DNA of 64,000 nt from positions 1 through 64,000 of the IMG/VR virus record IMGVR_UViG_3300022198_002714; one strand, 5' to 3'. The DNA is from a virus. The position numbers and the translations under genes are program-made. The notes beneath the pieces were generated by a model. The model ran no database searches. It was not told the DNA's origin and saw only the letters and a program-made list of their open reading frames with translations. Shown one piece after another: positions 4,134 through 64,000 of this stretch; position 1 is the stretch's first letter, and every line of letters begins with the position of its first letter.

Positions 4134-4645
4134 CACATACCCTCCCATATGCCGCTCGGATGACTCCAAACCAATTTTTCCGGGTCAAGATTCGCTTGAT
4201 GTTGTGCAAACGTCTCTTCAAAATCCAACGGTGCTGATTCGTATTCATCTTCGTGCATACCAAGCAACGCAGGTGTGGGGTCTATTCCCATTCTGTCAAT
4301 TGGTTTTGGTAATTTTCCTCGATAACCCATAACCATACCCACAGGGTCACTTGCTGCCGCAAATCCCGACGCACCCTCATGTGCTTCGGGTGTATTGCCC
4401 TTAGCCCACCATGAACCCATTCCGCTAATTGAAAAAGGTGCAATCCCTTCATACGGGTTTGAATGCCACTTTTCAGCATCTTGTGGTTGTACACCCTCAA
4501 TCATATTCTGTGGTACTCGGCCCCCGTGAATCCCTCTAAACGCGGTCACAGGCTCCATACCGGGGTAGTCTTCGATGTAGTTGTACAACTTCATCTGCCG
4601 ACTTGCTTTCAGCAAGGTCCAAGCAGCATCCATTGGACTCATCAC
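4133..4645 (-). CDS. Tagged accessory protein: N-terminal PMDxAW tag, PIP-like peptide, ADP-ribosyltransferase-like domain
   Basis: MMSPMDAAWTLLKA-SRQMKLYNY; VTAFRG...GSWWA...FEETF; more AT-rich than flanking tail genes. Confidence 0.6.
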   Translation of the reverse strand: MMSPMDAAWTLLKASRQMKLYNYIEDYPGMEPVTAFRGIHGGRVPQNMIEGVQPQDAEKWHSNPYEGIAPFSISGMGSWWAKGNTPEAHEGASGFAAASDPVGMVMGYRGKLPKPIDRMGIDPTPALLGMHEDEYESAPLDFEETFAQHQANLDPEKLVWSHPSGIWEGM

Positions 4646-6857: not shown

Positions 6858-8369
6858 TCACCACTTCACTTTGTCAGCCCAATACGCCGCACTCAGTTTG
6901 CCACGGCTGATGTTCTTGGCGTGGCGAGCCTTGAACGACTCACGACGCTTGCGGTATGAATCAGACTCGCCTTCCTTCTTTGGAGAGCCGGACACGCCTT
7001 GCTGACCGAAGCGAATGGTCTTGACCTGCCCTCCTTCACGGGCCACGACAACGTGGCTCTTCTTCGGGTGGTTGGGTGTGCGCTTGGGCTTGTTGAAGCC
7101 ACTCACGCCTGCGCGAGCGAGTCGTGGGTCGCGCTCGGCTTTCTGCATGCTGAGTGGCGAGCCGCACGTCTGACATGCACCTGCGGTTGCGGGAGTCTGA
7201 GCCAAGCAGTTCGGGTTGGCACACGTCGCCATGCCTTGTTGTACGCCAATCATTCGACGCTTTACGAGTACGTCGCTCTTCTCGACCTTCTCTTCCTTCT
7301 TGGGACTTCCAAGAGCAATGACCACGACCATGCCTTTCTTTGCCTTCTCTTCCTTCTCGGCTTTTTGAACCCCCACCGGCATTCGGCTACGCAGGTCGTT
7401 CACCATGTTTGCGTACGCGGGGTTCCCGTATTCAAACAATTTCATCTGATTTGGGTCTTGTTGTATGGAAGACAAGAATTGCAACGTGTCACGGGCTTGC
7501 ATGTAATCCGTCATACCACCCTGCCATGCGCGATTAGACAAATCTCCTTCCCACACGTCCAACATGGGTCGGTAGTTCTTTACTCGCTGAGCCAATTCAG
7601 CAAGTTTGTCTTTGTCCACACTACCGAATTGGTTTCGTAGGTTCACACCGTAGTTTGGGTCAAACTCGCCACGTTGGTAATCAATGGGTACGTAGCGATG
7701 ACCACGAAACGAGCGAAAAGCGGGGTCAAATACTCTCACTTGTCCATCTTGCAATCCAACATTGGGACCTTTAGCGTCTGAAAGACTCAAAAATTGCATC
7801 AATGGGTCAGAAACAATTGATTCCACTTCTTGCTCATGTCCGTGAAAATTGTCCCTACCCGGACCAAATACCTTCTCCATCTGTTGTTGTTCAACCGCCC
7901 CACGCACAGGCGTTTCAGGCACAATGGGGAGGTTCATGTCCGCAAGTGCTTGGGAAAGTGCAAGCGTAGCAAAACGATTTGGTGCGTGTGCTGAGTCATG
8001 TGGCACCTTCCGCACAGGTTGAGACTTGTCATCGGGAATTGTAGCGGTGCGATAGAAACCTGAAGTCGTGCGGGCCTTGACAATCGTTGGCTTCCCGCCA
8101 ACGCCCTGCTTCTTTGCACGCTTACGCTTGGTTGCGGCACGCTTCTCACCCTCGCTCATTGAGCCTGATGTACGAGGCGTCTTGGAACTGACCTTGACTG
8201 ATGGGCGACACTTGGGGTAGCCCTTGCTGCTCTTACTTGCCTTGGGGCGACCACAGGGCGGGTGCTTCCCGTCCTTGTCCTTTCGGCTCACGTCCACCCA
8301 CTTTTCCTTGAACCAACGATTCAAGTCCTTGATGACAAGCACATCGTGGCAGGTGCAGCGGTCGCTCAT
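6858..8369 (-). CDS. Modular polyprotein: basic domain, kinase-like domain, Zn ribbon, basic domain
   Basis: LNRWFKEKWVDV..PCGR..YPKCRP; SGFYR..VRKV..SDAKGPN..RVFDP; CANPNC..CQTCG; NKPKRTP..KTIRFGQQG..SFKARH..AAYWADKVKW; ATG at 8369 coupled to the upstream stop. Confidence 0.65.
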   Translation of the reverse strand: MSDRCTCHDVLVIKDLNRWFKEKWVDVSRKDKDGKHPPCGRPKASKSSKGYPKCRPSVKVSSKTPRTSGSMSEGEKRAATKRKRAKKQGVGGKPTIVKARTTSGFYRTATIPDDKSQPVRKVPHDSAHAPNRFATLALSQALADMNLPIVPETPVRGAVEQQQMEKVFGPGRDNFHGHEQEVESIVSDPLMQFLSLSDAKGPNVGLQDGQVRVFDPAFRSFRGHRYVPIDYQRGEFDPNYGVNLRNQFGSVDKDKLAELAQRVKNYRPMLDVWEGDLSNRAWQGGMTDYMQARDTLQFLSSIQQDPNQMKLFEYGNPAYANMVNDLRSRMPVGVQKAEKEEKAKKGMVVVIALGSPKKEEKVEKSDVLVKRRMIGVQQGMATCANPNCLAQTPATAGACQTCGSPLSMQKAERDPRLARAGVSGFNKPKRTPNHPKKSHVVVAREGGQVKTIRFGQQGVSGSPKKEGESDSYRKRRESFKARHAKNISRGKLSAAYWADKVKW

Positions 8370-8530
8370 CAGTACACCCCGACCATTTTCTTGAGATTCT
8401 TTTGTTGATGAAGTAAAGCGTAACAAGGACAACGAGGGGAACTATCGGAGCATTGGTTGCCCTCGTACATGCAGACGCAGGGCGTTTTCTTGGTTGCCCC
8501 GCAGCAACATTTGTCCTTCTTCAGTTTCAC
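8369..8530 (-). CDS. Small Cys-rich basic protein
   Basis: GTG overlapping the upstream stop; KCCCG..PCVC..QC..RCPCY (8 Cys in 53 aa). Confidence 0.55.
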   Translation of the reverse strand: MKLKKDKCCCGATKKTPCVCMYEGNQCSDSSPRCPCYALLHQQKNLKKMVGVY

Positions 8531-8691
8531 TTCTTGTCCCCCTTCTTCTTGCGGAACTTGCCCTGACAGTACTGCACGGCCCAACCGTTCGCATATGCGG
8601 AGGGGTACACCTTGAACTTCCGCTTAGCGGCCTTCTTGCCCGCTTCGCACAATTCCTTCAACACGGCCCAAGATTCGTCCATCGGCGTCAT
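8527..8691 (-). CDS. 54-aa tagged basic protein (not in ORF track)
   Basis: ATGA overlap with the giant gene stop; MTPMDESWAVLKELCEAGKKAAKRKFKVYPSAYANGWAVQYCQGKFRKKKGDKK. Confidence 0.7.
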   Translation of the reverse strand: MTPMDESWAVLKELCEAGKKAAKRKFKVYPSAYANGWAVQYCQGKFRKKKGDKK

Positions 8692-35913: not shown

Positions 35914-37080
35914 TCACTTCAGGTCACGGATGGAAGCGTGACCACCAAAGAAAGTGGTCCACAACTCACCCATGGTGCGGTACATGCCTTCCTGACCCAG
36001 CCTGTTGATGGCGAAGGGGTCGCCCGTCTCGATGCCGGACTCGAAGTACTGAGTCGGGATGGCGGTGGAGAAGTACAGGTAGTCCGTGTCGAGGAAGTAC
36101 ATGCGGGACAGGGTGTCCTTTGCAACGTCCTTGGAGGGGATGATGGGAATACCGTTGTAGGTCGCCACGATGAAACCGGCCTCGATACCGGGCACACCCT
36201 TCACACCGTTGTAGGTGGGGGTGACACGCTTTTCCTCAAGGAACCGCTGCTGCGACTGCAAGAGTTGCTGCAAGCGCATGAGGGTGTCGTAGCCCGTCAG
36301 GATGACCTTGGGGTTGCCACCGCGCTCCCACGTCAGGCGGAAGATTTCATCGAGGTGGTCGAGGGACAGAACACGGTCCGTACCCTTGGTACCGGAGGTG
36401 CTGACTTCGGCGTGGGACCAAGCGTTTGCGTCACGGTTAATCGAGTACATGTCTTCGTCACCGGCTTCTCCGTAGTCACCGGCTGCCCCACCAAAGTCCA
36501 TGGTGTTCGCCACGTTACCGGATGCCGTGATAGCACCCGCCGTCACACGGTCGAGCGACTCAAAGTCGTTCCCGGCAACGGTCGTCACGTCCTCGGTGAG
36601 CATCTTGTTGATGTGTTCTGCGTGGTGCTTGCCCATCTCTTCCTTCAGCACGGCGCGAATGTCACCGAGGCCGTCGTCCTTGTCAGCAAGGAACATCGCC
36701 GTCTCCGACATGTCGAAGGTGTGCGCGATGGTCTTGGGCTTCGCAGCAATGTGTTGGAAGGTCGGCTTGGTGGTGTCGGGGAGAGTCGAGTTCTCCGCGA
36801 GGCCACCGCCCTTGGCGAAGGAGGGACGCTCCGTGATGACGCGCCACCCGCTGCGCTCCCAAGGCCGCTTGGGGAGGATGGAGAAGGCGTTGAACTCTTG
36901 GTTGAGTTGGCTCCACACCTTGCGGCCATAGATGGCCTGATAGATACCCGCCGTGGTGGAGAGCATCGGTGCGTCAGCCTTCAAGAGTTCGCTGCCGGAG
37001 TAAGAGTACCCCATGGCGTTTCCTGCGCCATAGAAGTACCGCTCCATGTCGGTAATTGTCCTGATGTAGTCACGTGCCAT
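35914..37080 (-). CDS. Major capsid protein (HK97 fold)
   Basis: Follows the protease; GGLAENSTLP, GNDFESLDRV, NPKVILT, ATYNGIPII, MYFLDTDYL; strong codon bias. Confidence 0.9.
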   Translation of the reverse strand: MARDYIRTITDMERYFYGAGNAMGYSYSGSELLKADAPMLSTTAGIYQAIYGRKVWSQLNQEFNAFSILPKRPWERSGWRVITERPSFAKGGGLAENSTLPDTTKPTFQHIAAKPKTIAHTFDMSETAMFLADKDDGLGDIRAVLKEEMGKHHAEHINKMLTEDVTTVAGNDFESLDRVTAGAITASGNVANTMDFGGAAGDYGEAGDEDMYSINRDANAWSHAEVSTSGTKGTDRVLSLDHLDEIFRLTWERGGNPKVILTGYDTLMRLQQLLQSQQRFLEEKRVTPTYNGVKGVPGIEAGFIVATYNGIPIIPSKDVAKDTLSRMYFLDTDYLYFSTAIPTQYFESGIETGDPFAINRLGQEGMYRTMGELWTTFFGGHASIRDLK

Positions 37081-37106: not shown

Positions 37107-38480
37107 TCACTCACCCCGGACCGCTCGGCCCGCGAGGGTGTGAACTTCGTCCCACGACATGTTCGCAAGGTCGCCCGTGGTGGGGACCTCGACCTTCGTG
37201 GAGGACTTTGCAATGGTGGTGCCAACCGCAACGCTGCCGGTGGACAGGTTGTCGAGGCGGTCACTCAGCGACTCAATGGACTTGAGAACCTGAGCGAGAG
37301 GGGCACGCGGGTCAAAGTTGTCGCGCTCGACCTGAGCCTTGGCAATCTGCATCTCCTGAGAGAAGCGGGAAGAGAACTGCTGCTCAAGGTTGCCACGGAA
37401 GGCCTGCTCAAGAGCAGCGGCCTTGTACACTTCGTAGGCAGCCTCAATGTCGGAGTCGGAAGCCGAGGTGACGTAGGACTTGCCGAGTTGGACAGGTCCA
37501 AGGGCACCGGAGGGTTCTCGACCGCCGCCGGAGGTGAGGGCGGAGATGGCACCCGTGGAGGGGCTACCCTTCTCCTGACCGCGACCGCGAACCTGACCGG
37601 CAAAGTAGTCGGCACCGTCCACGGAGTCGGGGTTGTCAAAACCGCCCATCTGAGCCTTCGACATTTGGTCGAAGTGCAGTCGGGCCGCGTGGGTGTCAAC
37701 ACCCGCGCTCTTCAGCGTGTCTTCCATCCATGAGAGGTATTCAGCGGTGATAACGTCGCTGTATTCTCCCTTTTCCATATCTTCAGGCATGTCTTCGTCC
37801 TCCTTGTTGTCTTTTTGGGACTCTTTTTCTTCGGAGTCCTTGGACTCCTTCTTTCCTTCCTTCATGCTCTCACGGAGAGCAGGAGGAAGTTCGCCCTTTT
37901 CCATCGCATCGAGGCGGGCTTCAAGTCGGCTCATAATGTCGGTCAAATCGTTGTCTGCACTCATAGTGGTGTCCTCCTTTAAGATGCTGAACTGCGCTTC
38001 AGGGTTAATCCCCTTCTCGCAAATCGTAATCTCATGGAGTTCCATTTTGGAGATTTCCTGATAATCTCCGTGGATTGAGTCAGACTTGCGAACACGCTTG
38101 AACGCCTGACCCCCAATAGAGAAGCCACGCAAGTTGCCCTTGCGGATTTCCGCAGCAACCTCACGGGCCTTCTCAATGTCGTTGCGGAGTTGCACAACGA
38201 CGAACATGCCGGTGTCGTCACACTCAGACTTCCACATGCGACCGTTGGAGTCCACGTAGGAGTCAATGACTTCACCGACTTGAATGTTGGAGTGAGCGAG
38301 TTGCACGTTGCGGTACTTGTCGCTCTTCATAAAACCATCAAAGGCATCCTTGAGGGCACTCCGCGTAATGAGGTCGCCCTGCTTATCCACCAATTCGACG
38401 GAAGCATAGCCCGCAACCACAAGGTCAGACCCGCTCTTCAGGAGCGAGAGTCCGACTTCAGGTCGCTGAACCGTAAGCAT
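37107..38480 (-). CDS. Prohead (maturation) protease fused to scaffold region
   Basis: VAGYASVELVDKQGD, LAHSN, LRGFSIGG, LHEITIC..GINPEA (HK97-type protease); acidic coiled-coil C-terminus. Confidence 0.9.
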   Translation of the reverse strand: MLTVQRPEVGLSLLKSGSDLVVAGYASVELVDKQGDLITRSALKDAFDGFMKSDKYRNVQLAHSNIQVGEVIDSYVDSNGRMWKSECDDTGMFVVVQLRNDIEKAREVAAEIRKGNLRGFSIGGQAFKRVRKSDSIHGDYQEISKMELHEITICEKGINPEAQFSILKEDTTMSADNDLTDIMSRLEARLDAMEKGELPPALRESMKEGKKESKDSEEKESQKDNKEDEDMPEDMEKGEYSDVITAEYLSWMEDTLKSAGVDTHAARLHFDQMSKAQMGGFDNPDSVDGADYFAGQVRGRGQEKGSPSTGAISALTSGGGREPSGALGPVQLGKSYVTSASDSDIEAAYEVYKAAALEQAFRGNLEQQFSSRFSQEMQIAKAQVERDNFDPRAPLAQVLKSIESLSDRLDNLSTGSVAVGTTIAKSSTKVEVPTTGDLANMSWDEVHTLAGRAVRGE

Positions 38481-45720: not shown

Positions 45721-47493
45721 TTAGGCACCGCGAGGCCTTCGGGCGTTCATCAGCGCATTGCTGACGTTTTCTTGTAGGTTAGGCTGCGGACCCCGTTGTT
45801 GAACGCTACTAAACGGTGCGCCGCTACCAACCACGGTCCTTCGCTCAGGCGCAGCAGGCCCTCGATTACGCAGACCAACACCTTGACCACCGGGTTGAGG
45901 TGGCGGCATTGGCATGCCCGGAGGCATTCCACCAACCATTTGCGGTGGCATACCCGGAGGCATACCCGGAGGCATACCCGGAGGCATACCCGGAGGCATA
46001 CCCGGAGGCATACCCGGAGGCATGCCCGGAGGTGCGCCACCCGGAGGCATACCCGGCATGCCTTGTTGTGGCTGCGGTTGTGGCTTGCGGTACACAAAGC
46101 GAATGTCGCGGTTAGAGGGGTCCTCAAGCAGTTCCGGTTGGAAGCCCAACTGAGCCATGCGTTGAGCGACGTTGAGTTCTTGTTCGTCACGACGGAGACG
46201 GGTAATTTCGTCTTCTTCCTCGTTGGGGTACAAGGTGAGTTTCCAATCGTTGACGTTCATCTGTTTAAGCAGACGAGGAAACAGAACATCTGTGTACACC
46301 TTTTGACCGTACTCAACTGCACGGTTGGTGACAAGAATCTGCATACCTTCATTGTTCAGTCCACCGGACTTGCCGGTGTCCACCATGAAGATGCTTGAAA
46401 CGCCATAGAATGCGGCAATTCTGTTGCGAATCTCGTCACGGACCGGAATGTATTGCATTTCCTCCAAGGTGTCCATGAACTTGACCCAATTCACGCCACC
46501 CTTGCCGGTTTGCGATTCAATACCAACACGGGGAATGTAGTGGGGGTCACGCTCCATCTTCTCGTCAACGGACTTCCAAAATGACTTCATGGACTCAAGA
46601 TTGTCCGTAGTCACCGAGATGATACCCTTGGGCATCCGTCGCTTTTGATAGGCCGTGTACATGTAATTGTCCATAGCCGTGAGCGTCATGGCTTGACGCC
46701 ACATGGTGTTGACGGGACTGCGACCGTACAACTTTGACGGAGTGTACTTGCTGACGTGAATTACTTCACCTTCAACGAAGTACTGCGTCTTTCCGCTACC
46801 GGCCATGTTGACGTAGTGAACGTCTTCAAGGTCACGACCACAGTTCTCGCACACCTTGTCGTCAGCATGCGTCTTCACTTCGTCACGATGGATGATGCAG
46901 ACTTTGAATCGGCCACCGCGCACACCACGTTTGTCGGCCACAATCCGCATGAAGATGGGGTCACCGCGAACCATCTCCTTGACACGATAAAACGCAATCT
47001 CCTTGCTTTCAGGGTCAATGAAGTATTCTTTGACCAAGATGAGGAAAGCGTCATCCACGATATTGAGGTCATTCTCAACTTCATGAAGCAGATGGACAAA
47101 AGATTGTTCCATCGAGTTTTCCTGTTTGAGCAACCATTTTGGGTACGTCAACTCATCAGGGTCAGGCTTGCGCACTTCGCCACCGCATTGCTTGCAGGAT
47201 TCCATTTCCTGTTGGTATTCTTCATCGCACACCGTACATTTGACTGTGAACTTCTTTTCCCAATAGTAGCCGCGACGAAACATCTCCTGACGCAACTTGG
47301 AAAGAACGGTGCGCAAAATTAGCGACTCGTTGCTGACTGCATAAAGCGCAGGGATGGTGATGCCCTGAGCCATTACGGGTTCCTGAATGCCGCTTGACCA
47401 CAACGGCATGGTCGGCGTAGGAGACTCACGCGACTTGAACGGGCTACGAAGGCCTGACAGGAACCGAGAAATGCGTCCTTCTTCTGCCATCAT
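45721..47493 (-). CDS. Portal protein with Zn-ribbon insertions and PPGM tail
   Basis: [25 protein letters not shown] portal motifs; position after TerL. Confidence 0.9.
45947..46030. repeat. 7 x 12-bp tandem repeat GGCATACCCGGA (PPGM in portal)
   Basis: 6 perfect copies plus 1 variant. Confidence 0.95.
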
Positions 47494-48788
47494 AGCCCCT
47501 CCGCGTATGCACCTATGGTATCGGCATCAATTCCCCACTTATCAAGAAGCCCGTTGGCTTTCACCGTATGGTCCTTCCAATTTGAAAAGGTGACAAGTCG
47601 GTACAATTCCTGCTTTCGCATAAAATCATCTTCATCCACATACGATAGCATGGCTCTTGCTTGTGTGGTCTTGAGCATCATGTGAGGAAGTGTAGCCTTA
47701 AGGACACGGCGAATGTCGTCCTTGCGTGAAAAAATAAGTCGGTGTACACTCTTCTTGGTGTTGTGAGACACCTTTTGGTCCGTGACAAGACGACCACATC
47801 CGGTAGCCTTGTGCAAGTCTTCGCACAGTTGTTTTCCTGAATCGCCACTTGCTACAAAGGTCACACGGGGGTCACCGCGTTCGCTGATAAAAATACTGCC
47901 GTCAGAATCGAGTGAACCCGCCATGTACGCCCAAATGTCCTTGATGATGAATCCATCACGACCTAAAAGAACGTAGTCACCACGTGATGTACTTTTGAAG
48001 ATGTTTAATTCTTCACCGTACATTTTGAGCAGCGCACCCATTCGTTGCGCCGTCATGTTGCGGTCCAACGTGTCTGCACCACGGCGAAGCAACTCTCGGC
48101 TGCTTAAGTGTCCATGAGCCTGCAACTCTTCTGCTGCAAAGTACAGGGCATCTTGTTCTGCTTTGTTCAGCGTGTCCACTTGATGCAGTACATTTTGCCA
48201 CATTTTGCGAGCATCTTTCTGCAATTGCATAGCGTCAACCCACGATTGTTGGTCGTTTTCATCCCAATCCACTTTGTCGTTGAGCATTTGCAACACGGTG
48301 TTGGCCTTGAGGAATTGATGACAAGCCTTTTGCAACGACACGCTACGGTTTTCACCAAACTTTCGCAACGCCTTGAGGCTGCGGTCGGATAGCCCCATCT
48401 GTTTAATCACACTCTCCATGCCTTCAGCCCACGACAGATTGTTGATGGTCGCTTCAACCTCCATGGCCTTCAGTTGTCGAACAAGTCCAATCGTTTCGTC
48501 GTATTCGTCACGGTTGTCTTTGTCGTGCCGCCGCATCTTGCGACACTCACGAATAATGGTGTCAGCATCCTTGCCCCAATACGTTTCAAGCCATCCGTCA
48601 CCGTTCTTTGGAAACTCGCGCTTTCGCAGGTCTTCTTTGATAAATACAGTTGAGGTGGTTTGCAGCGGCAAATCGTTCTCATTGAACATAGGATGCTGAG
48701 AAAGCGCGTTGAGTACCATTTTTGTCAAGGGGTCTTCAACGACCATGGGCACGTCGTACACGTCACCCACCAATGCACTCCCCCACAT
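47490..48788 (-). CDS. LAGLIDADG-family endonuclease-domain protein with long helical N-terminus
   Basis: WAYMAGSLDSDGSI single LAGLIDADG motif; LPHMMLKTTQA; free-standing between TerL and portal. Confidence 0.8.
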   Translation of the reverse strand: MWGSALVGDVYDVPMVVEDPLTKMVLNALSQHPMFNENDLPLQTTSTVFIKEDLRKREFPKNGDGWLETYWGKDADTIIRECRKMRRHDKDNRDEYDETIGLVRQLKAMEVEATINNLSWAEGMESVIKQMGLSDRSLKALRKFGENRSVSLQKACHQFLKANTVLQMLNDKVDWDENDQQSWVDAMQLQKDARKMWQNVLHQVDTLNKAEQDALYFAAEELQAHGHLSSRELLRRGADTLDRNMTAQRMGALLKMYGEELNIFKSTSRGDYVLLGRDGFIIKDIWAYMAGSLDSDGSIFISERGDPRVTFVASGDSGKQLCEDLHKATGCGRLVTDQKVSHNTKKSVHRLIFSRKDDIRRVLKATLPHMMLKTTQARAMLSYVDEDDFMRKQELYRLVTFSNWKDHTVKANGLLDKWGIDADTIGAYAEGL

Positions 48789-48841
48789 AATGACCACTCA
48801 CTTGACCATTGGTTAAAAACCCCACTCAGGAAACGGGTAAA

Positions 48842-51082: not shown

Positions 51083-53227
51083 TCACCTCATACTTATTTT
51101 AATGACCTTGACGACCTCGGGTTGGACGTTGTACGACTTCGCAATTTTGTGCCAATCACCCATCGTGTGATGAATGTTGGTTACTTCCTCGGAGGTAAGC
51201 CCAACGTATGAAGCCAACTGACGGGAGGACGTGCGGGAAGAACTGAGGTGTTTCACCACGTTGTTGTCCAATTCAGCCTCGCGGTACTGCATTCGCTCAA
51301 GTGCTTTCATCACTTGGTCCATCACAGGCAGATGTATGTCTTCGCTGCGCATGAACTGCGACAACAAAGTTTGGCGTGGGTCAGACAGGCCTGCTTGGGC
51401 GCGTGCTTCAACGGGAGACAACTCAGGCGAAGCAGCAGGCCGCTGCCGACCACGACCTGCGAGGTCGAGCATTTCCCTGAACTGTGCAGGGGTATAGCGG
51501 CCAATGTCCGGTCGAATGGCTTGGAAATCAGCCGACAAGGGTTGAGGTGTCCCTGCGTCTGCGAGCGGCGGAGGTGATGAGCCGCTTGTTGGGAGAGGCA
51601 CCGTAGCCGACGGATGAGCGGACGCCGGTACGGGTGCAGACGCAGGGACTTCTTGTGGTAGGTCACCGGGGTTGTAGTCAGCAAAGTCTTCAACCCACGC
51701 ATAATCGTAATTTTCCATATGTGGCTCAAGCCTAAGTTGTGGCTCAAGCATATCACCGTGATAATTCTGAATGTGCATAGGTCGGCCAAGCGGCTTGTTT
51801 GGTACCTCACCTACGTCTTTTCGCTCATGACCGCGAGCCACCATTTGATGTTCAGCAAGCCCTTCAATTAAACGACGATTGAGATTAACTTGCTCTTGTT
51901 CATCAGGAGCAATACTTTCTAATTGAACGTCACGCAATTTGGAACTGCCGTCTTCGTTAGCGCCAAACATGTTTGCAAGAGCCATGACACGTCCTGCCTT
52001 AGCATGCATACCTGTCCCTTTACCGCTCCCTCCCGCCGTGTAGTACTCGCTATGCTCGTCATGAGAAAGGCCTGAATAATCTTCAAGCCTTCCCATTACG
52101 TTGTTGAACAATTTCATGAAATTGCCTCCTTGTTGGTTTGCTCGACCAAACAAAAACATCATTGCAGGCACCGATGAAATCTCCTTAATGACCGCTTGCT
52201 GATATTCAGGAGTGAGCAGGGCTTCTTGCAACGGTCGTTGGATTCTTTGTCCTTCAAACGTAAAGGTCACAGGAAAATTAGGTATGGCGTCAACATTGCC
52301 TCCACTTAGGGCTTGTCGAATATGGTCTGCCGTCCTTCTTTGCAAATCAATGGCTTCCCTGTTTTGGGGCATTGGTTTGAAAAACACATCAGGAAGATGA
52401 TGCAGCACTTGCCACGTAAATGCTTCTTGTTGTTCTGCGGGTCTGAACTCATCAGGAAACGGAACTTTTGACCCATCAATATACGCGGAGCCGGGGTCAC
52501 GTTGTTCGGAGCGAATGTACTTCGGGGGTGTGGTGTAGTTCGCATATACAAACGGTTTGTCATGCAACAAAAATCTGACATTATGCGCAAGCATGTCAAT
52601 TACTTCAGGTGAAAAATGCTGCTCAAGCAGTTGTCGCAATTCGACGTTGAAGGGTAAGTAGTACGATTCAATGAACTTCCCATTTGGGTTTTCAGCGGCG
52701 TTGTTGTTTGTCAGCAACGTAATCTTGGTGCCGTCTTGCGAACGAGTTGGTCGAGTTGTCTTGTCAGGATGCATTTCCACCTGTTTTGGTAGGGGTGCAG
52801 AACGCAACTTTCGCCATTGAAGGCTCTCAAACGGTGCCAAATGGTGTTTTTCGTTTGGGTGCTTTTGGTTGAACAAGTCAATTGCTTGATTGAAAAGATT
52901 GACAACATCAGGAGATGAAATAGAAGGAACATGCCCTTGCAATGCACGAAGCAAGCGGTATGCAGCCGCATCAATACCGTGTTGGAAAAATCGAGGGCCG
53001 TTTGGGTGGTCCCTTTCACGGGTGTGGTAGTAGTAAATGCCGCCATCGTCTTTGGCCCATTCTCCATCATACACGTTGCCTGCACCATCGTGGGCAAAGG
53101 CAGGTAAGTCCAAGTTTCCCATTGGCTTGAAGGCCGCAGGTGGAGGGTTTCGCATGACGAACCTACCGTTAGGTCCTGAGTGAATCAGACCCCACGCCTT
53201 CTGAATGATGAACGAATTGTACATCAT
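51083..53227 (-). CDS. 714-aa hypothetical protein (PIP-like peptide, degenerate tag, C-terminal HTH-like)
   Basis: Coupled ORF; RQTLLSQFMRSE..PVMDQVMKAL; WHKIAKSYNVQPEVV. Confidence 0.65.
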   Translation of the reverse strand: MMYNSFIIQKAWGLIHSGPNGRFVMRNPPPAAFKPMGNLDLPAFAHDGAGNVYDGEWAKDDGGIYYYHTRERDHPNGPRFFQHGIDAAAYRLLRALQGHVPSISSPDVVNLFNQAIDLFNQKHPNEKHHLAPFESLQWRKLRSAPLPKQVEMHPDKTTRPTRSQDGTKITLLTNNNAAENPNGKFIESYYLPFNVELRQLLEQHFSPEVIDMLAHNVRFLLHDKPFVYANYTTPPKYIRSEQRDPGSAYIDGSKVPFPDEFRPAEQQEAFTWQVLHHLPDVFFKPMPQNREAIDLQRRTADHIRQALSGGNVDAIPNFPVTFTFEGQRIQRPLQEALLTPEYQQAVIKEISSVPAMMFLFGRANQQGGNFMKLFNNVMGRLEDYSGLSHDEHSEYYTAGGSGKGTGMHAKAGRVMALANMFGANEDGSSKLRDVQLESIAPDEQEQVNLNRRLIEGLAEHQMVARGHERKDVGEVPNKPLGRPMHIQNYHGDMLEPQLRLEPHMENYDYAWVEDFADYNPGDLPQEVPASAPVPASAHPSATVPLPTSGSSPPPLADAGTPQPLSADFQAIRPDIGRYTPAQFREMLDLAGRGRQRPAASPELSPVEARAQAGLSDPRQTLLSQFMRSEDIHLPVMDQVMKALERMQYREAELDNNVVKHLSSSRTSSRQLASYVGLTSEEVTNIHHTMGDWHKIAKSYNVQPEVVKVIKISMR

Positions 53228-55227
53228 CCCATATGCCCCCGTTGTGAGACAAGATAGCCCGCCGGGTCAAGACCAAACTGCTTAGCGTCTGTCTCGTCGT
53301 TTTCTGTCGGTCCTTCAGGGTCCGACTCATTTTTGGGACTTACACCGGCAGGATGAGCAGGAACGTGACCGTTCTCCATTGCGCTTTGTGTACCTGCTTT
53401 TTCCAACTTATTTACTCGCTCCAATGCAGCCATGATGCGGCGCATAATGTTGAGTCGCTCAGTTGTGCGAGCGGCTCGACCCTTGAGCATCTCACTCTCG
53501 GTACGCTCTTCACTCATCATAATGGACGAGGGAGCAGATGGAGCAGATGGAGCAGATGGGATGCCGGGGACCATGGACGATTGCGGTGAAGGCATCATTG
53601 GCGGCATGGGTGGCATCGGTGGGCGTGGCATACGGGGCATACGGGGTTGATGGACTCTCAATGGACGAAGTGCGGGTTGCCTCATTTGTCCTGCTTGACC
53701 GGGCAAGAGTCCGCTGAGTCTTCCTGCTCCGGTGGGTCCGGCATAACTGCCTCGCTCGGCGTAGCGGGCGTGGGGTGAGAAAGTTGTGCGTACATTGCCG
53801 AGAATCTTGCGAGCCTCAGATTGGCCCATGTACTGACGGTACTTTTGCGGGTCTTTCGACATGGGTTGTTTCGTCGCAATGCCACGGTGACTCATCTCCA
53901 CAGATAGGTGAGGTAACATCAACCCCGTTTTCTTTCCACCCTTGATACCACGCATGCGAGCGCGGAAGCGCCGCATGGTAGCACCGCTTGGGTCCATGCC
54001 GCCGGGTGGCCGCTTAAATTGTCCTGTGGAGGGACGAAACTCGCGCCGCGCTTCACGACGGCGACGGGCTTCGATGGTACCGGGTGTTTCACGTTTCAAC
54101 AACGCAGACCAAGCATCTTCCATTGGTTCAGCACGGTTGAGGTCTTGCCATCCATAGCCAAACATAGGATTTTTGTTTTCCATGATGCGAGTGTTTGCCT
54201 CGTCAAAATACGGTTCACGCTCTTCTGCTGAAAGATTGTCAAAGTCAGGATGCATCATTATGTCAGCGAGTGCTTGGTGGCTAAGGTTCATGTGCGGTCG
54301 TTCTGCCAAACCTTCCATCATCATGCTTTGACGCAGTTTTTCTTGTTGCCGCTCATGAGCAATAGCATCGTCTTCTTTCAGCAACGTGGACCAAGCATCT
54401 TTCATTGGTTCACTTGCCAATTTTTTCCATTGAGAAGGGTGTACCGCATGCGCTCTTGTTACGTCACGGGCCATGTGGTCAGTTCTTGGCGTTGTTCTCC
54501 CTAAATCAAAATCAATTCCACCGGGCATTTCCAATTGACTGTCTTGCCATGCGTCAAACATCATCTCCCAAATTGAATTGTCAATGTCTTCTTGACTCAA
54601 TTCAGGAAAATCGCCGTACATTCGTTGCATACCTCTTTGCATGAATGGATTACCTTGAAGCCTTAGCCACTCAATTTTTTCATCATTGGACATACCTTCA
54701 ATGTAATCCCACAAAGAATTGGTGACGCCCATCAAATGCTCATCTGCTTCATCATTCCAAATCTGCTCATCAGGATGAATGTAGTCTTCGTCTTCTTTCA
54801 GCAACGTGGACCAAGCATCTTTCATTGGCTCGCTCATAAAGAGCGGTACAGGACCGGTCATTGCGCTACCGGTACCTGTCTTGGCCCCCGTAGCCATGTC
54901 AAGCATATGACCGCGACTGCCCGCAGGACCGCCCTGCAATCCGAGTTCTCGCTCTAAGTCCTGCTTGTTGCCGTCGTCCTCACCCATTGGTGACTCGGCA
55001 CCGTCAAGAGGCAACTTTGCGCTGACCTTGATGTGCTTGATTTTGCTGCGCTTTTCTTTGCGCTCTTGTTCACGCTGCTTCCGCTCTTCGCGGCGGCGTT
55101 CCATGTCTTCCGGGGACGTGGGCGAGTACTTGTCCTCGTCCTCGTTAGCCGACGAGTACATCTTGTCGGACTCGCTACGCGGCGAGTACATACGAGTGTC
55201 CGAGCCGCGTCCCATCATCGGCATCAC
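53224..55227 (-). CDS. Tagged polyprotein with three tags
   Basis: EPMKDAWSTLLKE twice and EPMEDAWSALLKR separate acidic and Arg-rich segments. Confidence 0.7.
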   Translation of the reverse strand: MMPMMGRGSDTRMYSPRSESDKMYSSANEDEDKYSPTSPEDMERRREERKQREQERKEKRSKIKHIKVSAKLPLDGAESPMGEDDGNKQDLERELGLQGGPAGSRGHMLDMATGAKTGTGSAMTGPVPLFMSEPMKDAWSTLLKEDEDYIHPDEQIWNDEADEHLMGVTNSLWDYIEGMSNDEKIEWLRLQGNPFMQRGMQRMYGDFPELSQEDIDNSIWEMMFDAWQDSQLEMPGGIDFDLGRTTPRTDHMARDVTRAHAVHPSQWKKLASEPMKDAWSTLLKEDDAIAHERQQEKLRQSMMMEGLAERPHMNLSHQALADIMMHPDFDNLSAEEREPYFDEANTRIMENKNPMFGYGWQDLNRAEPMEDAWSALLKRETPGTIEARRRREARREFRPSTGQFKRPPGGMDPSGATMRRFRARMRGIKGGKKTGLMLPHLSVEMSHRGIATKQPMSKDPQKYRQYMGQSEARKILGNVRTTFSPHARYAERGSYAGPTGAGRLSGLLPGQAGQMRQPALRPLRVHQPRMPRMPRPPMPPMPPMMPSPQSSMVPGIPSAPSAPSAPSSIMMSEERTESEMLKGRAARTTERLNIMRRIMAALERVNKLEKAGTQSAMENGHVPAHPAGVSPKNESDPEGPTENDETDAKQFGLDPAGYLVSQRGHMG
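54368..54828. repeat. 41-bp perfect direct repeat (54368-54408 and 54788-54828), in frame, encoding the tag
   Basis: TCGTCTTCTTTCAGCAACGTGGACCAAGCATCTTTCATTGG twice, 420 nt apart; a diverged third copy near 54091-54130. Confidence 0.9.
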
Positions 55228-59504: not shown

Positions 59505-59660
59505 TAGTCACTTTTGTCACCACTTACTTCACCAAAATGAGTATTCACCATTGTACTCTTACACTCTCTCTATTTATTGAGAGTAGTACCTATGAAATAA
59601 TGACAACTCGTTTTGTCATTTACATGAGTAAGGTGGTGACAAAAGTGACAAAAGTGACTA
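59505..59660. repeat. Non-coding nested inverted repeat with GTGACAAAA units (candidate origin/packaging/regulatory site)
   Basis: TAGTCACTTTTGTCACCACTTACT (59505-59528) versus AGTAAGGTGGTGACAAAAGTGACAAAAGTGACTA (59627-59660), plus inner hairpins. Confidence 0.8.
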
Positions 59661-61190
59661 CTCCACTTTGTCAATCTGCCTCAACGTACCACGATTCTTG
59701 AAATGACGGGCACGGTTGTCGTGTTCACTTTCGAGGGTCAGTTTGTTACCTTGAGTGTGGCTCACGTCCATGTGGTCGTGGCTTCCCATAATTCCACGGC
59801 GACGACGCTCACGGTTGAGTTCTTCACGGTACTTGACGCGCTCAGGAGAAGATTCGTACTGTTTGTCGTATTCCAACTTGTGCCGCATGGCTTCGGGACT
59901 TACACGCTCTTTGAGCAACCGCATAGCGATGTCCATTGGTTCGCCTGTTTGAACTTCTTGTGGTGTATAATATACAGAATAAATAGTAGGGTTTTCTTCC
60001 GTACCCCATTTACCTCTATGAATAGGGGTCGCTCCCTGCCTTTTATCAAAGTCATCCCACACCTCTTGGTGCAATTGTTCGGCTGAGCAATTAGGATTTA
60101 TTGATAGATTGCACATATCAGTAAATCCTTCAAAATGAACAGTATGGTCACCTAATCTTTCAACACCTGTATCATCCGGTGTTAATTGATTAAGAAATGC
60201 CTCAACATGTTGTAGTGGGTTATCATCTTTAAGCAGACGGAAGGCCAAGTCCATTGGACTTGCACTCATCTGAATGTCACCATACTGCGGTTGCGACATG
60301 TCAAAGCCCTGTCCAACTTGCTTTGCAGCCATGGCAGGATGCATGCCGCCCTGCACAAGTTGCGTAAATTGGTCGTAGTGCATAGGGTGAACGTCGTACA
60401 TGTTTGCCGTGTTGAGTTCAAACTGCTCTCGCGCAGGAGCGGTGGGGTCACGCGCGTACTGCAAAATCTGCTGAAGTTCGTCCTGTGGTGGGGGACGAGG
60501 TTCTTGATATGACATGTTGGTACCGCTTACTCCGGTTTTTCGCCTTAAATTGAGCAACAATTCTTCCAATTCGTCACTTTTAGGTTGGCTTTCAGTCCTT
60601 GTAGGCCCTCCAATCAAAACAGGTAAAGCATCAGCAGCAATTTTTTTCTGTGCATAAGTACTCAAATGGTCCAAAGGAGTACGATAACCGAAGTTTTCAT
60701 ACGGATTTTTCAAACTACTAAAGGTGGTACCTACACTACTGTCATAGAGTTCGGCTTTTTCCGGCTCAACATACCTTGACAAAAAATTGGACATTGCTTG
60801 CCTCATTGCATCACGGTATTGTTTTGCATTTGCTTCTTGCAATTCTTTTTCCTTTGCTTCTATGTCCAAAGTGTAATCTGCGTTTTGCAAAGCATCAAGC
60901 GTAGCACGCCAATTTTTCATCGCTTTAGACTGTTCACGAAGTGCTTGCTGCGATGGAAGCATCCTTTCAGTTTCCGGCGTGGTCACCAAAGGCTCAAACT
61001 TGGATGACAAATCTTGGACTGAAACATCTTTCTGATTTATGCGGTCTCTAAACACTCCATTAGTTGCTTGCGCCGATAAGTCGTTTTGTGCGTAAATAGC
61101 CTGAAGGAGAGCCTTTAGGCGGGCAACGTGTTCGTCAGATGATAGGGGCATCTGTGCCGCATCAGCAAGTTTCTCGCTAAATGAAGGCAT
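59658..61190 (-). CDS. Tagged polyprotein with two tags and C-terminal HNH-like domain
   Basis: SPMDLAFRLLKD and EPMDIAMRLLKE flank a very AT-rich insert; C-terminal DVSH..LTLESEHDNRAR. Confidence 0.65.
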   Translation of the reverse strand: MPSFSEKLADAAQMPLSSDEHVARLKALLQAIYAQNDLSAQATNGVFRDRINQKDVSVQDLSSKFEPLVTTPETERMLPSQQALREQSKAMKNWRATLDALQNADYTLDIEAKEKELQEANAKQYRDAMRQAMSNFLSRYVEPEKAELYDSSVGTTFSSLKNPYENFGYRTPLDHLSTYAQKKIAADALPVLIGGPTRTESQPKSDELEELLLNLRRKTGVSGTNMSYQEPRPPPQDELQQILQYARDPTAPAREQFELNTANMYDVHPMHYDQFTQLVQGGMHPAMAAKQVGQGFDMSQPQYGDIQMSASPMDLAFRLLKDDNPLQHVEAFLNQLTPDDTGVERLGDHTVHFEGFTDMCNLSINPNCSAEQLHQEVWDDFDKRQGATPIHRGKWGTEENPTIYSVYYTPQEVQTGEPMDIAMRLLKERVSPEAMRHKLEYDKQYESSPERVKYREELNRERRRRGIMGSHDHMDVSHTQGNKLTLESEHDNRARHFKNRGTLRQIDKVE

Positions 61191-61191
61191 A

Positions 61192-62517
61192 TCAATACGT
61201 CCTAAGTTTCTTGTACGCAGCAAGCGCAGATTCTATCATTTCAGGAGACAATTTATCCAAACCTTGTGGGAACGAGCCATGCCTCATGATACCAAGTGGT
61301 GTGTTACTGTATATTGCTTTTGATGCCAACTGACCCGGAATGAACTCTATATTCGATGTAATCTCTTTAACCGATTTATCGTCTGCCTGACGCCTCATAG
61401 CATCAATCAACTCAAGTTTTTCTTCGGTCGTCATCTCACGACCTCCGGGTTGAAGGGGAAAACCTTCCTTGTCGTACGCTCCTTCAAGTGCAGGATGAAT
61501 GGCGGACATTGGAAATTGCGAAGCGTATTCTCGCCATGCTGCTTGTTGTGGACTGACTATTGTTTTGTAAGGATTATCCCTTCTATCAAGCGGATTCAAT
61601 CTTCGTAGCCTCTCTTCAATTGCTGTTGGCTGCATTCGTTCATATGTCATCCAATCCGTATCTTCAGACTTAATTCTCCAATTTGTTGCATTAGGCGTAT
61701 CGCTTTTCCATGAACCACTTGCACGTAAAGGCGTCAAACGACTGTTATCAATGGGTGTCATCGCTACGTATTCGGCGGACTCACCCCCCTTGAATCGTGG
61801 CCGTTCTTGTACCAAATCTCCGGGGTAAAACCCAAGGCCGCGAACGCCAAACAGATTTTCTTTCTTTTCAGAAAGAACCTCATTCATTTCTTTTACATTG
61901 GGTGGAACAAGAAACTGCATGGGCATGCCTTCTTCTGTCTTATATCTGTAAGGTAAAGGGTTGCTCACGTTTTCCTCATAAGAACCAACGTAACTTCGTC
62001 CACTCATAGGGATGAGTTGACCACCGGGAGTGGTCATGACACGCGATGCAATGTCTCCTGTGAAGCGGTATGCGTTGATGGGTGGGATTGAGCCGGGAAT
62101 TACCGTGTTGGTCTGCGGGTCAAGCCACCGCTCGGTGGTCAAACCCGGAATCAGTTGCGGTAGTTTCATCTGCGTGGTAAAACGCACGTTGGGCGGGCTT
62201 TCCCTACCGGCTTCCCAAAGCATACTGTTTGGGTCAAAATCAGCCTGAGCATTCGCTTCGCCTATGTTGAGAATATCTCTCACGGTATTACCGTAAGTGT
62301 AGCCAAAATCCGGACGGCGGGTAAAATCATCAGGGTCAATTGAGTCTTCATACACCGTTTCCATGGTCGGAAACTCAAGCGATTCAGTAGGAACGTGAAT
62401 GGGACCTAAGTACTCACCCCTGTACCTGTTGCGCGGATTTTCAGGAAAACCAAAGTCGCCGGTAAGGGTCGTTTGCCGCTTCAGCAAACGCCATGCCGAC
62501 TCCATTGGGTCCAACAC
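61192..62517 (-). CDS. Tagged protein: N-terminal tag, PIP-like peptide, ART-like domain
   Basis: DPMESAWRLLKR-QTTLTGDF; NAYRF..GRSYVGS..EYVAMTPIDNSRL; SD GAGGTGA. Confidence 0.6.
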   Translation of the reverse strand: MLDPMESAWRLLKRQTTLTGDFGFPENPRNRYRGEYLGPIHVPTESLEFPTMETVYEDSIDPDDFTRRPDFGYTYGNTVRDILNIGEANAQADFDPNSMLWEAGRESPPNVRFTTQMKLPQLIPGLTTERWLDPQTNTVIPGSIPPINAYRFTGDIASRVMTTPGGQLIPMSGRSYVGSYEENVSNPLPYRYKTEEGMPMQFLVPPNVKEMNEVLSEKKENLFGVRGLGFYPGDLVQERPRFKGGESAEYVAMTPIDNSRLTPLRASGSWKSDTPNATNWRIKSEDTDWMTYERMQPTAIEERLRRLNPLDRRDNPYKTIVSPQQAAWREYASQFPMSAIHPALEGAYDKEGFPLQPGGREMTTEEKLELIDAMRRQADDKSVKEITSNIEFIPGQLASKAIYSNTPLGIMRHGSFPQGLDKLSPEMIESALAAYKKLRTY

Positions 62518-62518
62518 T

Positions 62519-63466
62519 TCACCTCAGCATTTTGAGCATGCGCCATGCAAGGTCCATTGGATGCCCGGTTTGCACGGTACCGTTCATCTCGTCCCAAACA
62601 CGTTGTTCGTACTGACGCTGAAGGACTGAAGGATGGGTCTGAGGGTTTGCAATCTGCTTGTTTTCCAAGAAAACTTCACCGGTATCGGGGCACGAAATGG
62701 TGTGCATCTGCCCCAAGTAGTCGTGACCGGGCACAAGGGGTTGCGATTCAATGGTCAAGTCGCTTGGTCGAGGCTGACCTTGCAGGCTACGCATAGTACG
62801 CTGCTTGTCGGCTTCTTCTTGCGCAAGTCGCTTCGCATTGTTAGCCACTTTTGTTTCATAGGCACGCCTGCCTGCGTCCGAGCGCACCTGTGCAGCCTCT
62901 TGAGCAAGCCGCTGCCGCTGCATCTCAATGGCCTCACCCATACCGCGCTGCTCTTCGTTGGTCAACACGGTTGGACTGTTAACCTTGGTTGTGGCAATGT
63001 TTTGCTTGACTTGCTGTTCGGTTTGCCACTCTTCGTCGGTTTGCTCTTTTTCACGGAAGTTCTTCTTGCTACTTGAGGGAGCCATCATTTCAAACTCGCG
63101 CTCGTAATCCTTTTTGGCCTGTACGGGCTTCTTGATGGTTGAAGCAATGGGCTTGACTATTCTTTGCTGCTCGAACCGCTTCTCCTTGGCCTTCTGTTGA
63201 TTGTGCCGTTTGGCTTTTAACATCAACAAAAAATCCCATGCAAGGTCCATTGGCTCGCCGGTCTGAATCTCAGCACCCTGCTTGGCCTGTTCAGCGGCCT
63301 GTTGCGCTTCGGCTACCTGTTGGTCCTTGCGCTTTTCACCGCCCATCATTGCACCAAGGCCTGATGTTGCCGCACCAATCGCGGCTTGACCCTGTGGGCT
63401 TGCAGCAGCAGTAGCCGCTTTACCGGCAGCAGCGGCAATCGGTGCAGCAACCGCAGGCAAAGGCAT
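62519..63466 (-). CDS. Tagged protein with two tags
   Basis: IQTGEPMDLAWDFLLMLKA and C-terminal VQTGHPMDLAWRMLK; Ala/Gly-rich N-terminus. Confidence 0.65.
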   Translation of the reverse strand: MPLPAVAAPIAAAAGKAATAAASPQGQAAIGAATSGLGAMMGGEKRKDQQVAEAQQAAEQAKQGAEIQTGEPMDLAWDFLLMLKAKRHNQQKAKEKRFEQQRIVKPIASTIKKPVQAKKDYEREFEMMAPSSSKKNFREKEQTDEEWQTEQQVKQNIATTKVNSPTVLTNEEQRGMGEAIEMQRQRLAQEAAQVRSDAGRRAYETKVANNAKRLAQEEADKQRTMRSLQGQPRPSDLTIESQPLVPGHDYLGQMHTISCPDTGEVFLENKQIANPQTHPSVLQRQYEQRVWDEMNGTVQTGHPMDLAWRMLKMLR

Positions 63467-63491: not shown

Positions 63492-63989
63492 TCAACAATG
63501 CGTAGTGCAGACTTCCGGCTGAGGGTTCCGCAATCCGTACGCCAATTCGCTTGCTGAGCGCAGTAATCCAGTATCTATGCCGGTTTTGAAACCCCATGCG
63601 TGCAAATGATTCACAAGCGTTTCAGTTGACAAATTGGCTCCGCTGCCTTTAGCAAACGGGCAACCGCCGAGTCCGCCGATGCTGCTATCGAACTCAGTCA
63701 CACCTTCAAGCAACGCTTTGCGCACCAACATGAGCGCACGCTCTTCCTTGTCACGGTGGTGCAGGTGCAGCGCGACGTTCAATCCCTCATCGCGGGCCAT
63801 TTCCACCATCCACGGCAATTCGTGCGGCGCAGCCGCGCCCACGGTGTCAGCAAAAACCACGGTGTTACCAAACATTTTGGCGTCACGTAAGCATGAGCGC
63901 ATGGTGTTCTCGCTGACAAGCCCGCTATCAGGGCTACCAAACGCCATCGAGAGGTACACGCGCACGTTTTCCTTGGGTACATCTTGCAT
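63492..63989 (-). CDS. Hydroxymethylglutaryl-CoA lyase-like (DRE-TIM) enzyme, C-terminal part; probably begins beyond the window end
   Basis: YLSMAFG, FADTVG, ALHLH, FDSSIGGLGGCPFA..NLSTETLV..GFKTGID. Confidence 0.9.
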   Translation of the reverse strand: MQDVPKENVRVYLSMAFGSPDSGLVSENTMRSCLRDAKMFGNTVVFADTVGAAAPHELPWMVEMARDEGLNVALHLHHRDKEERALMLVRKALLEGVTEFDSSIGGLGGCPFAKGSGANLSTETLVNHLHAWGFKTGIDTGLLRSASELAYGLRNPQPEVCTTHC

Positions 63990-64000
63990 AAACGTGCGGT

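Follow-up and report, generated by a model that had tools for sequence, protein, structure and literature searches.

Integrons rely on an integrase that moves whole-gene cassettes at attC/attI sites. In polymorphic toxins (CdiA with its VENN motif, Rhs and MuF-toxins) a conserved junction motif marks variable domains that are swapped by recombination; only the C-terminal toxin varies, and it is paired with an immunity gene. Here we describe a viral gene in which a short translated repeat, hereafter the tag, bounds variable internal segments. The gene is a 667-amino-acid (aa) open reading frame (ORF) on the minus strand of the window, by which we mean the whole stretch of 64,000 nucleotides (nt) that was analyzed, positions 1 to 64,000 of IMG/VR virus record IMGVR_UViG_3300022198_002714.

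Comparable peptides and domain arrays are known from phages. The T4 capsid-targeting sequence (CTS) loads proteins into the scaffolding core and is the sole conserved part of diverse injected, defence-countering internal proteins (PMC3012670). Polyvalent proteins combine 2–15 disparate domains, are encoded near the portal and terminase genes, are predicted to be packaged, delivered with the DNA and freed by proteolysis, and usually have their own embedded peptidase, zincin-like in ~36% (Iyer et al., 2017, PMC5512222); the term ‘linker’ has 0 occurrences in the text of that paper. In the giant phages SPN3US and phiKZ many head proteins are cleaved by a single prohead protease at a short motif that they share, in some cases more than once per protein, and the propeptides may target proteins into the prohead (PMC10052503).

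Comparison of the 667-aa ORF with its relatives shows that (i) the base form of the gene family is an N-domain (~130 aa), one 11-residue tag and a C-domain (~280 aa); (ii) the tag is a hot spot for unrelated in-frame modules, with a tag on both sides of each; and (iii) there is gain, loss, reordering and exchange of modules, the last also from one tagged gene to another, with breakpoints within the tag-coding DNA.

Module arrays in the 667-aa ORF and its relatives

The initial annotation had described two exact 41-bp copies and a diverged third copy that split the 667-aa ORF into an N-domain, two unrelated acidic inserts and an Arg-rich domain. A repeat search and the translation bore out this layout, with inserts that measure 129 and 83 aa (Table 1). 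The 41-mer was found exactly twice in the window (54368–54408 and 54788–54828), even with 3 mismatches allowed, and a 41-mer match was obtained in 0/100 dinucleotide shuffles of the window. The repeat search extended it to a 47-nt family whose third copy (54086–54132) has 74% identity, at spacings of 282 and 420 nt; the exact repeat reaches 8 nt into insert 1. All three copies are in frame in the ORF and encode SEPMKDAWSTLLKED twice and AEPMEDAWSALLKRE once, so the peptide pattern P-M-x-D-A-W-S-x-L-L-K occurs three times. Insert 1 has 29 D+E against 10 K+R and insert 2 has 18 against 8, and the C-domain is basic (25 D+E, 48 K+R). No similarity was found between insert 1 and insert 2. The whole protein had no tblastn match among 50,697 phage records and no match in Pfam or PHROGs, no peptidase domain was seen in it, and its C-domain had no usable match in a protein atlas.

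The inserts are also richer in AT than their flanks, as had been proposed. GC content was 0.39–0.49 over 54100–54800 vs. 0.57–0.64 in the flanks, and GC at third codon positions (GC3) of both inserts (Table 1) was below that of the N-domain (0.70) and the C-domain (0.53). Relative to 774 windows of 106 codons from other genes, insert 1 lies at the 6th and insert 2 at the 12th percentile, which is low, not extreme. The eight tagged genes of the window had a mean GC3 of 0.47 vs. 0.60 in the 23 untagged genes (Mann-Whitney p 1.2e-4), a difference that includes any effects of amino-acid composition and expression level. Modules were lower in GC3 in GC-richer relatives as well, e.g., 0.33–0.43 in the modules of L024 and L031 and 0.44–0.57 in their flanks. 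The lower GC3 of the modules fits import from a generally AT-richer pool of related viruses.

Homologues of the 667-aa protein formed 424 clusters at E ≤ 1e-3; the figures on relatives refer to the best 120 of these 424. All 120 have the ~130-aa N-domain and the ~280-aa C-domain, ~70% identical across lineages, with the tag placed exactly at the junction of the two. Only one tag and no insert was present in 28/120, and 76–439 aa separated the domains in 92/120. By regular expression (regex), 2 proteins had no tag, 36 had one, 57 had two, 22 had three and 3 had four, a count that overlooks degenerate tags such as …SNILK ahead of the C-domain; the same split gave 0–3 modules per protein. The 3′ half of the last tag travels with the C-domain.

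The inter-tag pieces, 64–232 aa in length, formed at least 23 clusters, which showed no similarity to one another at E 1e-5. The commonest modules were 144, ~100 and 158 aa long (35, 19 and 11 instances), and the two most frequent, B and C, were found in both orders: B before C in P0020 and P0036, and C before B in P0011, P0013, P0060, P0072 and P0091. One module is a NUDIX domain (P0019 residues 307–421, E 3.6e-19); the other 13 of the 14 architectures scanned had no Pfam match, and among these 14 relatives neither hallmark conflict domains (MPTase, ART, ArdC and others) nor an embedded peptidase was found. Near residue 298 of P0019 a full tag is followed by a second half-tag (…SSLLK then AWWLLK…) ahead of the NUDIX module, which looks like the scar of an imprecise exchange. 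Many of the architectures were present on multiple contigs (e.g., P0015 on 29, P0055 on 22 and P0005 on 9), some of them >100 kb.

The inserts vary among close strains; they are neither invariant nor flank-like in codon use. Among clusters with 94% identity, P0004–P0008 (426–427 aa) are without insert and P0003 (521 aa) has insert 2 only; both inserts are present in P0002 (89% identity). Contig L001 (~91% identical) has a single tag where the window has tag-insert-tag-insert-tag. Window positions 58000–54797 align to L001 1231–4431, and 54130–53222 to L001 4396–5295; the 36-nt overlap of the two L001 blocks is its single tag, and the alignment breaks inside the tags. Run X15, from a study outside the candidate sources, has a 3037-nt contig (depth 257) in which 54367 and 54788 are directly connected; the shorter side of this joint measures 255 letters. 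It skips the 420 nt of insert 1, the 41 letters fit both sides, and a single copy of the 41-mer is left. This contig differed from the window at 1/668 positions on the insert-2/C side and at 14/513 on the N side, a shift of the divergence pattern at the tag that is as expected for a crossover there. Run X14, not flagged as a possible source, contained pieces 100% identical to the window that break at the tags, and there the 41-mer formed its own contig at ~2× the depth of its neighbours. Runs X17 and X18 left parts of the stretch uncovered, from which we conclude nothing. Between 0.93 and 0.99 of the words of the stretch were present in runs of seven studies, six of them possibly including the source.

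The initial annotation took the perfect identity of the repeat as a sign of recent insertion. A recent indel is indeed indicated by the 1/668 differences on one side of the X15 joint; deletion between identical repeats would yield the same product, so the change may be either a gain or a loss of insert 1. The X15 variant thus points to a very recent gain, loss or unequal crossover. Locus L146 has the same order of N-domain, insert 1, insert 2 and C-domain, with 88% identity in the best protein segment and ~93% nt identity in the flanks. Since it shares this layout at ~18% of codons differing synonymously from the window (23/133 and 39/200), insert 1 is no newcomer to this lineage. As an alternative to recency, gene conversion may have occurred between the tags.

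Tagged genes of the genome and the shared module pool

The window is the first 64 kb of a single contig of 89,752 bp, which we treat as the genome. Searched with the tag regex, the minus-strand ORFs of the 89,752-bp genome gave 14 matches and the plus strand gave none; 200 residue shuffles put the expectation at 0.015. The tagged proteins are mutually unrelated. Five ORFs apparently begin with a tag (tag starts at 4636, 8685 and 62508 of the window and at 65530 and 65040 of the genome; start codons inferred). Internal tags start at 6729, 33087, 59939, 60257 and ~63226, and two ORFs have the tag at their extreme C-terminus (starts 62560 and 50373). ORF 32887–34239 (minus strand), the 33-kb pattern to which the initial annotation referred, has two 102-nt copies, 88% identical, at 33049–33150 and 33358–33459; these encode an extended tag (…RDPGEGGDDDMYGKAF.RSTPFNDAW…K), each followed by a Cys-rich module of ~100 aa.

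Residues P, M, A, W, L10 and K were invariant in 74 tags from 51 non-redundant loci, and the codons of invariant residues varied (CCG/CCA, AGT/TCT, TTG/CTA/TTA, AAG/AAA); selection on the tag acts at the peptide level. The exception is the tag Ala, which is GCT in 73/74 tags from genomes with GC3 of ~0.2 to 0.7, a bias that may reflect a nucleotide-level constraint on the core …GATGCTTGG…. DNA identity between tag copies was 67–100%. A perfectly identical adjacent pair of tags around one module was seen in 3/24 multi-tag arrays: 41 nt in the window, 39 nt in L017 and 37 nt in L031.

Other tagged genes of related viruses contain the same modules, a point that the initial annotation had proposed to check. 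With insert 1, tag and insert 2 as the query, a HMMER search run in full against 1.84 billion representatives gave 19 matches. P0137 and P0139 are orthologues matched via other parts, and P0131 and P0136 are long, repetitive, tag-less proteins that we took as spurious. The remaining matches have insert 1, or insert 2 in the case of P0134, between tags of another subtype, EPMDIA[FM][QR]LLK. Eight of the 19 (P0122, P0123, P0125, P0126, P0129, P0133, P0134 and P0135) end in the C-domain of ORF 59658–61223, a second array-bearing gene of the window. Insert 1 therefore occurs in orthologues of that gene, and in P0134, also an orthologue, insert 2 occurs in diverged form. P0121 has insert 1 between tags upstream of a C-terminal part (DUF5872) that it has in common with ORF 6858–8432. 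P0128 and one ORF of L153 open with a tag; behind it come other modules together with an insert-1-like one.

The family of ORF 59658–61223 comprises 535 clusters, the best 120 of which span 291–904 aa, and the 126 proteins analyzed have 0–4 tags each. Mid-modules from the 120 and 126 proteins of both families formed 56 clusters, 3 of them shared between the families. P0259, found on 2 contigs, is a natural chimera in which a ~150-aa module, with a tag on either side, connects the N-domain of the 667-aa family to the C-domain of the 59658–61223 family. Between the window and L146 the centre of insert 1 is only 37–60% identical and its flanks are ~93% identical. Both central alleles, that of the window and that of L146, recur in the other host gene, so exchange also runs through the modules themselves. 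A search of this genome with 110 module segments from the arrays of other viruses gave matches to the two inserts of the window only.

ORF 62519–63466 (minus strand) ends with …TVQTGHPMDLAWRMLKMLR and then stop. P0138 has a near-identical tag (15/16 residues), followed by an insert-1-like module and another tag, and we suggest that the C-terminal tag of ORF 62519–63466 may be an empty slot. Orthology of P0138 to this ORF was not supported; only the tags and near flanks match, and the empty slot thus stays a suggestion. A suspicion, by eye, of ParB-like and HD-like domains in tagged relatives was not borne out: HD_4 reached 20.6 bits against a cut-off of 27.2, and there was no match for the others.

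Table 1. Positions of the array-bearing genes, their parts and the LLK motifs in the window.
Feature	Position	Strand	Remarks
667-aa array-bearing ORF	53224..55227	-	no Pfam or PHROG match; 424 homologue clusters
N-domain, residues 1-133	54829..55227	-	mixed charge; conserved in all relatives; mostly low-confidence model, one long helix
Tag 1, residues 134-144	54788..54828; 33-nt core 54796-54828	-	core encodes PMKDAWSTLLK; exact repeat
Insert 1 (module I), residues 145-273, 129 aa	54409..54795	-	acidic, GC3 0.395
Tag 2, residues 274-284	54368..54408; core 54376-54408	-	same as tag 1 across 41 nt
Insert 2 (module F), residues 285-367, 83 aa	54127..54375	-	acidic, GC3 0.434
Tag 3, residues 368-378	54094..54126	-	PMEDAWSALLK; diverged copy
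C-domain, residues 379-667, 289 aa	53227..54093	-	Arg-, Pro-, Met-rich; ~70% identical across lineages; model mostly low-confidence
Second array-bearing gene	59658..61223	-	tags 60228-60257 and 59910-59939, one 96-aa module between; C-domain matches phrog_6437
DUF5872 gene	6858..8432	-	relative P0121 carries insert 1
N-terminal tag MSPMDAAWTLLK, ORF 4133-4645	4607..4636	-	apparently N-terminal
Capsid LLK motif	36976..36990	-	…GSELLK then ADAP…; near N-terminus
Protease LLK motif	~38433-38447	-	…SLLK then SG; N-terminus
1958-aa ORF LLK motifs	~44348 and ~44240	-	near N-terminus

Proposed mechanism of exchange and putative role of the tag

Exchange at the tags is well documented, and from these comparisons we infer both a mechanism and a function of the tag. 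The view of the locus as an integrase-free, in-frame cassette array held, with no integrase among the genes scanned. Ordinary homologous recombination, unequal or between co-infecting genomes, would act on the 33–41-nt tag-coding stretches and on shared modules, and a module swap would need no dedicated recombinase. Frame and both neighbours would be preserved in every exchange, since the tag comprises complete codons only and is restored on either side. As to function, the tag would be a short amphipathic helix ending in LLK that behaves as the signal for capsid targeting and processing does in T4 internal proteins. Proteins would be drawn into the procapsid by it, with cleavage after LLK by the S78 prohead protease. 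The 667-aa gene would then encode a polyprotein of a pro-region, variable cargo modules and a basic core protein, released during head maturation, with the modules as candidate injected effectors and the core protein probably DNA-associated. Insertion at the tag would be tolerated in several unrelated genes because a module between two processing sites could be cut out harmlessly. We give a probability of about 0.6 to tag-bounded exchangeable modules, plain homologous recombination and a capsid-loading and processing tag taken together as one explanation.

The role as a capsid-loading and protease-processing signal for virion cargo is inferred from the following observations. The 667-aa gene lies in the late operon, three genes upstream of the large terminase, and the portal, protease and capsid genes are on the same strand. 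The capsid protein, the protease and a 1958-aa protein all have the LLK end of the tag close to their N-termini, the last of them twice (Table 1). Within 80 loci, SELLK then AD was kept in 73/73 of the capsid genes found, and [LIV][LIV]K then [SGA] in 68/68 of the protease genes found. In HVTV-1, the sequence …MSK then ADN… aligns with this capsid site, and degenerate tags retain just …[IL]LK ahead of the C-domain. Tags 2 and 3 were modelled as short helices between low-confidence stretches. The N-terminal tags, the LLK in common with the kinds of protein that prohead proteases normally cut and the place in the late operon fit the T4 pattern, and likewise the cutting of giant-phage head proteins at multiple sites. 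The 1958-aa ORF (38519–44395, minus strand) lies between portal and protease and has its two …LLK then S sites in the first 60 residues; it has a weak ATP-dependent DNA ligase match (E 6e-4, below cut-off), and at the equivalent position HVTV-1 encodes a 1313-aa protein annotated as ‘zeta toxin’.

Several observations weigh against this combined explanation or limit it. Conservation of LLK in the capsid genes is weak evidence because the relatives are all at least 75% identical. A cut after LLK would cost the two C-terminally tagged ORFs (62560 and 50373) only 3–5 residues, and N-terminal tags would just be removed, which would fit a targeting role and fits pure cleavage poorly. The structural models are weak, with a mean predicted local distance difference test score (pLDDT) of 56.5 for the segment from tag 1 through module 1 to tag 2 and 50.9 for the whole protein; insert 2 is the best-modelled part, helical with pLDDT up to 88. 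Tag cores were 0.80 identical within arrays (n = 32 pairs) vs. 0.74 between arrays (n = 2669), a small difference in a comparison that did not control for relatedness. That the 41-nt pair is perfect is just a mild surprise: zero differences over ~13.7 codons had P ~0.09 by our own Poisson estimate from the window/L146 counts, if the tags evolved separately since that divergence. Finally, module B was not found as a free-standing gene, since the 1 match among 43 candidates <318 aa was an array fragment, and there is thus no evidence from gene fission for modules as independent units.

The best-surviving alternative, which we consider doubtful, keeps the same module exchange at the tags and replaces the function: in place of a capsid or protease signal, the tag would be a helix that docks to some other partner (hub protein of the virus, chaperone or host factor), and the arrays would be uncut multivalent adaptors. 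An amphipathic helix with conserved M, W and LL, found at N-terminal, internal and C-terminal positions, would suit a position-independent binding motif, and the base protein is mostly modelled as disordered, like many hub-binding proteins. Docking, however, leaves three things unexplained: the presence of LLK alone at the N-termini of capsid protein, protease and 1958-aa protein; the retention of no more than the …LK end by degenerate tags at the domain junction; and the tolerance of unrelated modules, an enzyme included, between two conserved domains in several genes.

A dedicated, homing-like nuclease or recombinase that targets tag DNA and moves cassettes is unlikely. The identical adjacent tag pairs in 3/24 arrays do resemble a duplicated target, and the GCT codon in 73/74 tags and the His-rich C-domain of the second array gene could be read in the same way. 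So could a weak HNH endonuclease match (phrog_5046, E 1e-4) in the 435-aa ORF 47490–48797 (minus strand), between portal and terminase. That match, however, adjoins the terminase, where a packaging HNH is commonly encoded. The scanned genes yielded no integrase or recombinase family, tag DNA is only 67–100% identical between copies, and the mosaic exchange inside module 1, away from the tags, is what plain homologous recombination predicts.

It is very improbable that the inserts are diverged tandem copies of one ancestral unit with the tag as its best-conserved segment. Insert 2 is weakly similar to module C (E 0.013–0.05, 27–31% identity) and insert 1 faintly so to module B (E 0.5), but modules of 64–232 aa in at least 23 clusters without mutual similarity at E 1e-5, a NUDIX domain among them, the same module in different genes and an insert-free form that retains exactly one tag argue against common descent. 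An assembly artefact of the repeated 41-mer, i.e., chimeric or collapsed metagenome contigs, is scarcely credible: short-read contigs do break at the tags, and in X14 no piece bridges a tag, but L146 has the identical order of parts, the words of the stretch recur in runs of the seven studies mentioned, many architectures lie on several contigs (P0015, P0055, P0005), and the insert-less X15 contig has a depth of 257 with 255 letters on the shorter side of its joint. An intein was rejected, as the empty allele keeps one full tag and the modules have no common motif beyond it (splice-junction residues were not formally searched).

The virus is probably a tailed magrovirus, a virus of Marine Group II archaea, a label that rests on similarity of the capsid protein. 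All long ORFs of the window are on the minus strand, which encodes an SU10-type capsid protein, the S78 prohead protease, the portal and the large terminase, the last with ≤27% identity to any phage record. The capsid protein had 11 matches in the phage collection, archaeal viruses only, and was closest to the haloarchaeal siphoviruses HVTV-1, HCTV-5 and HCTV-1 at 31–35% identity. Magrovirus capsid proteins show such a relation to haloarchaeal siphoviruses (Philosof et al., PMC5434244). The features compared were a capsid protein ~33% identical to haloarchaeal siphoviruses only, a ~100-kb genome and a full replication module. The contig measures 89,752 bp and lacks a terminal repeat, and a DNA polymerase was not found among the ORFs scanned in the remaining 26 kb. 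The tag regex had no match in the 19-kb structural region of HVTV-1.

Other features of the genome were recorded alongside. The adjoining 714-aa gene (51083–53227, minus strand) is a mosaic: the first ~480–520 residues of its product are just ~49% identical to the L001 and L149 orthologues, with no nucleotide alignment to either over 51659–53222 and flanks that are 90–94% identical, and L146 is 95% identical across the variable part. This region looks hypervariable or allele-swapped, without tags. The portal ORF (45721–47493) contains 12-nt tandem units (GGCATACCCGGA and variants) at 45911–46042 that encode a Pro/Gly/Met-rich repeat. The tail region has a single ORF of 5520 aa (8688–25250, minus strand). 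A 281-aa ORF with an HMGL-like domain (E 1e-21; window 63492–64000, continuing to genome position 64337, minus strand) is a metabolic-type enzyme within the viral late region.

Comparison with known systems

The known kinds involved are capsid-targeting tags, polyvalent proteins and recombination at junction motifs. It is possible, with the odds against it, that they combine here into a genome-wide, integrase-free exchange of domains in which the tag would be both a cargo loading and processing signal and the recombination joint. Any module flanked by tags could then enter any tagged gene without loss of frame and be packaged and released. Searched by term, the texts of PMC5434244 and PMC11706807 gave no description of the tag or the arrays, nor did we find one in literature on magroviruses or on prohead protease cleavage sites of archaeal tailed viruses.

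The principle, a short translated motif that serves as a homology patch for in-frame shuffling, is partly known from polymorphic toxins; in this literature we came across no account of it for internal multi-unit arrays, nor one for archaeal viruses. If confirmed, the locus would be a clear natural case of such a motif doubling as a shuffling patch across several genes. What makes the locus notable is that a single translated joint gives several genes access to a common pool of modules. Marine Group II archaea have abundant, uncultured viruses whose genes are mostly of unknown function; the tag marks, and apparently mobilises, dozens of variable modules, which gives a direct handle on the accessory arsenal. 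Tagged proteins can be listed from sequence alone and their turnover traced in metagenome time series, the loading and cleavage idea is approachable without culture, and the tag, if its role is confirmed, would be usable as a portable capsid-loading signal.

Like the T4 CTS, the tag is a short conserved peptide on otherwise unrelated, diverse proteins of one virus (14 matches vs. 0.015 expected), often N-terminal in both. In T4 the CTS belongs to small individual genes, is confined to the N-terminus and is cleaved off by a different protease at an L/I-x-E site. The tag described here is also internal and multiple, bounds swappable modules and ends in LLK.

With polyvalent proteins the array shares disparate domains in a variable architecture (at least 23 module clusters, NUDIX in one relative) and a head-packaging neighbourhood, three genes upstream of the large terminase. 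In contrast to them, it has one conserved tag at every junction, where polyvalent proteins have no uniform junction peptide; no peptidase domain was seen in the 667-aa protein, and most modules are without a known family. The giant phages differ in that their motif has 3 residues and their propeptide pieces are discarded, and these are not interchangeable modules shared among genes.

Unlike the variable domains of polymorphic toxins, the modules are internal, multiple and reorderable, their pool is common to several genes, and the C-domain is conserved (~70%). No immunity gene was seen, and the next gene is the conserved 714-aa ORF.

As in an integron, the array consists of exchangeable units at a fixed site with a common recombination sequence at the junctions. 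It differs in that no integrase was found in the scanned genes, the 33-nt junctions are translated in frame and the units are protein domains. If the genome-wide exchange considered above takes place, the tagged genes would be a protein-level counterpart of the integron that reshuffles injected effectors in archaeal viruses that are among the most abundant of the ocean.

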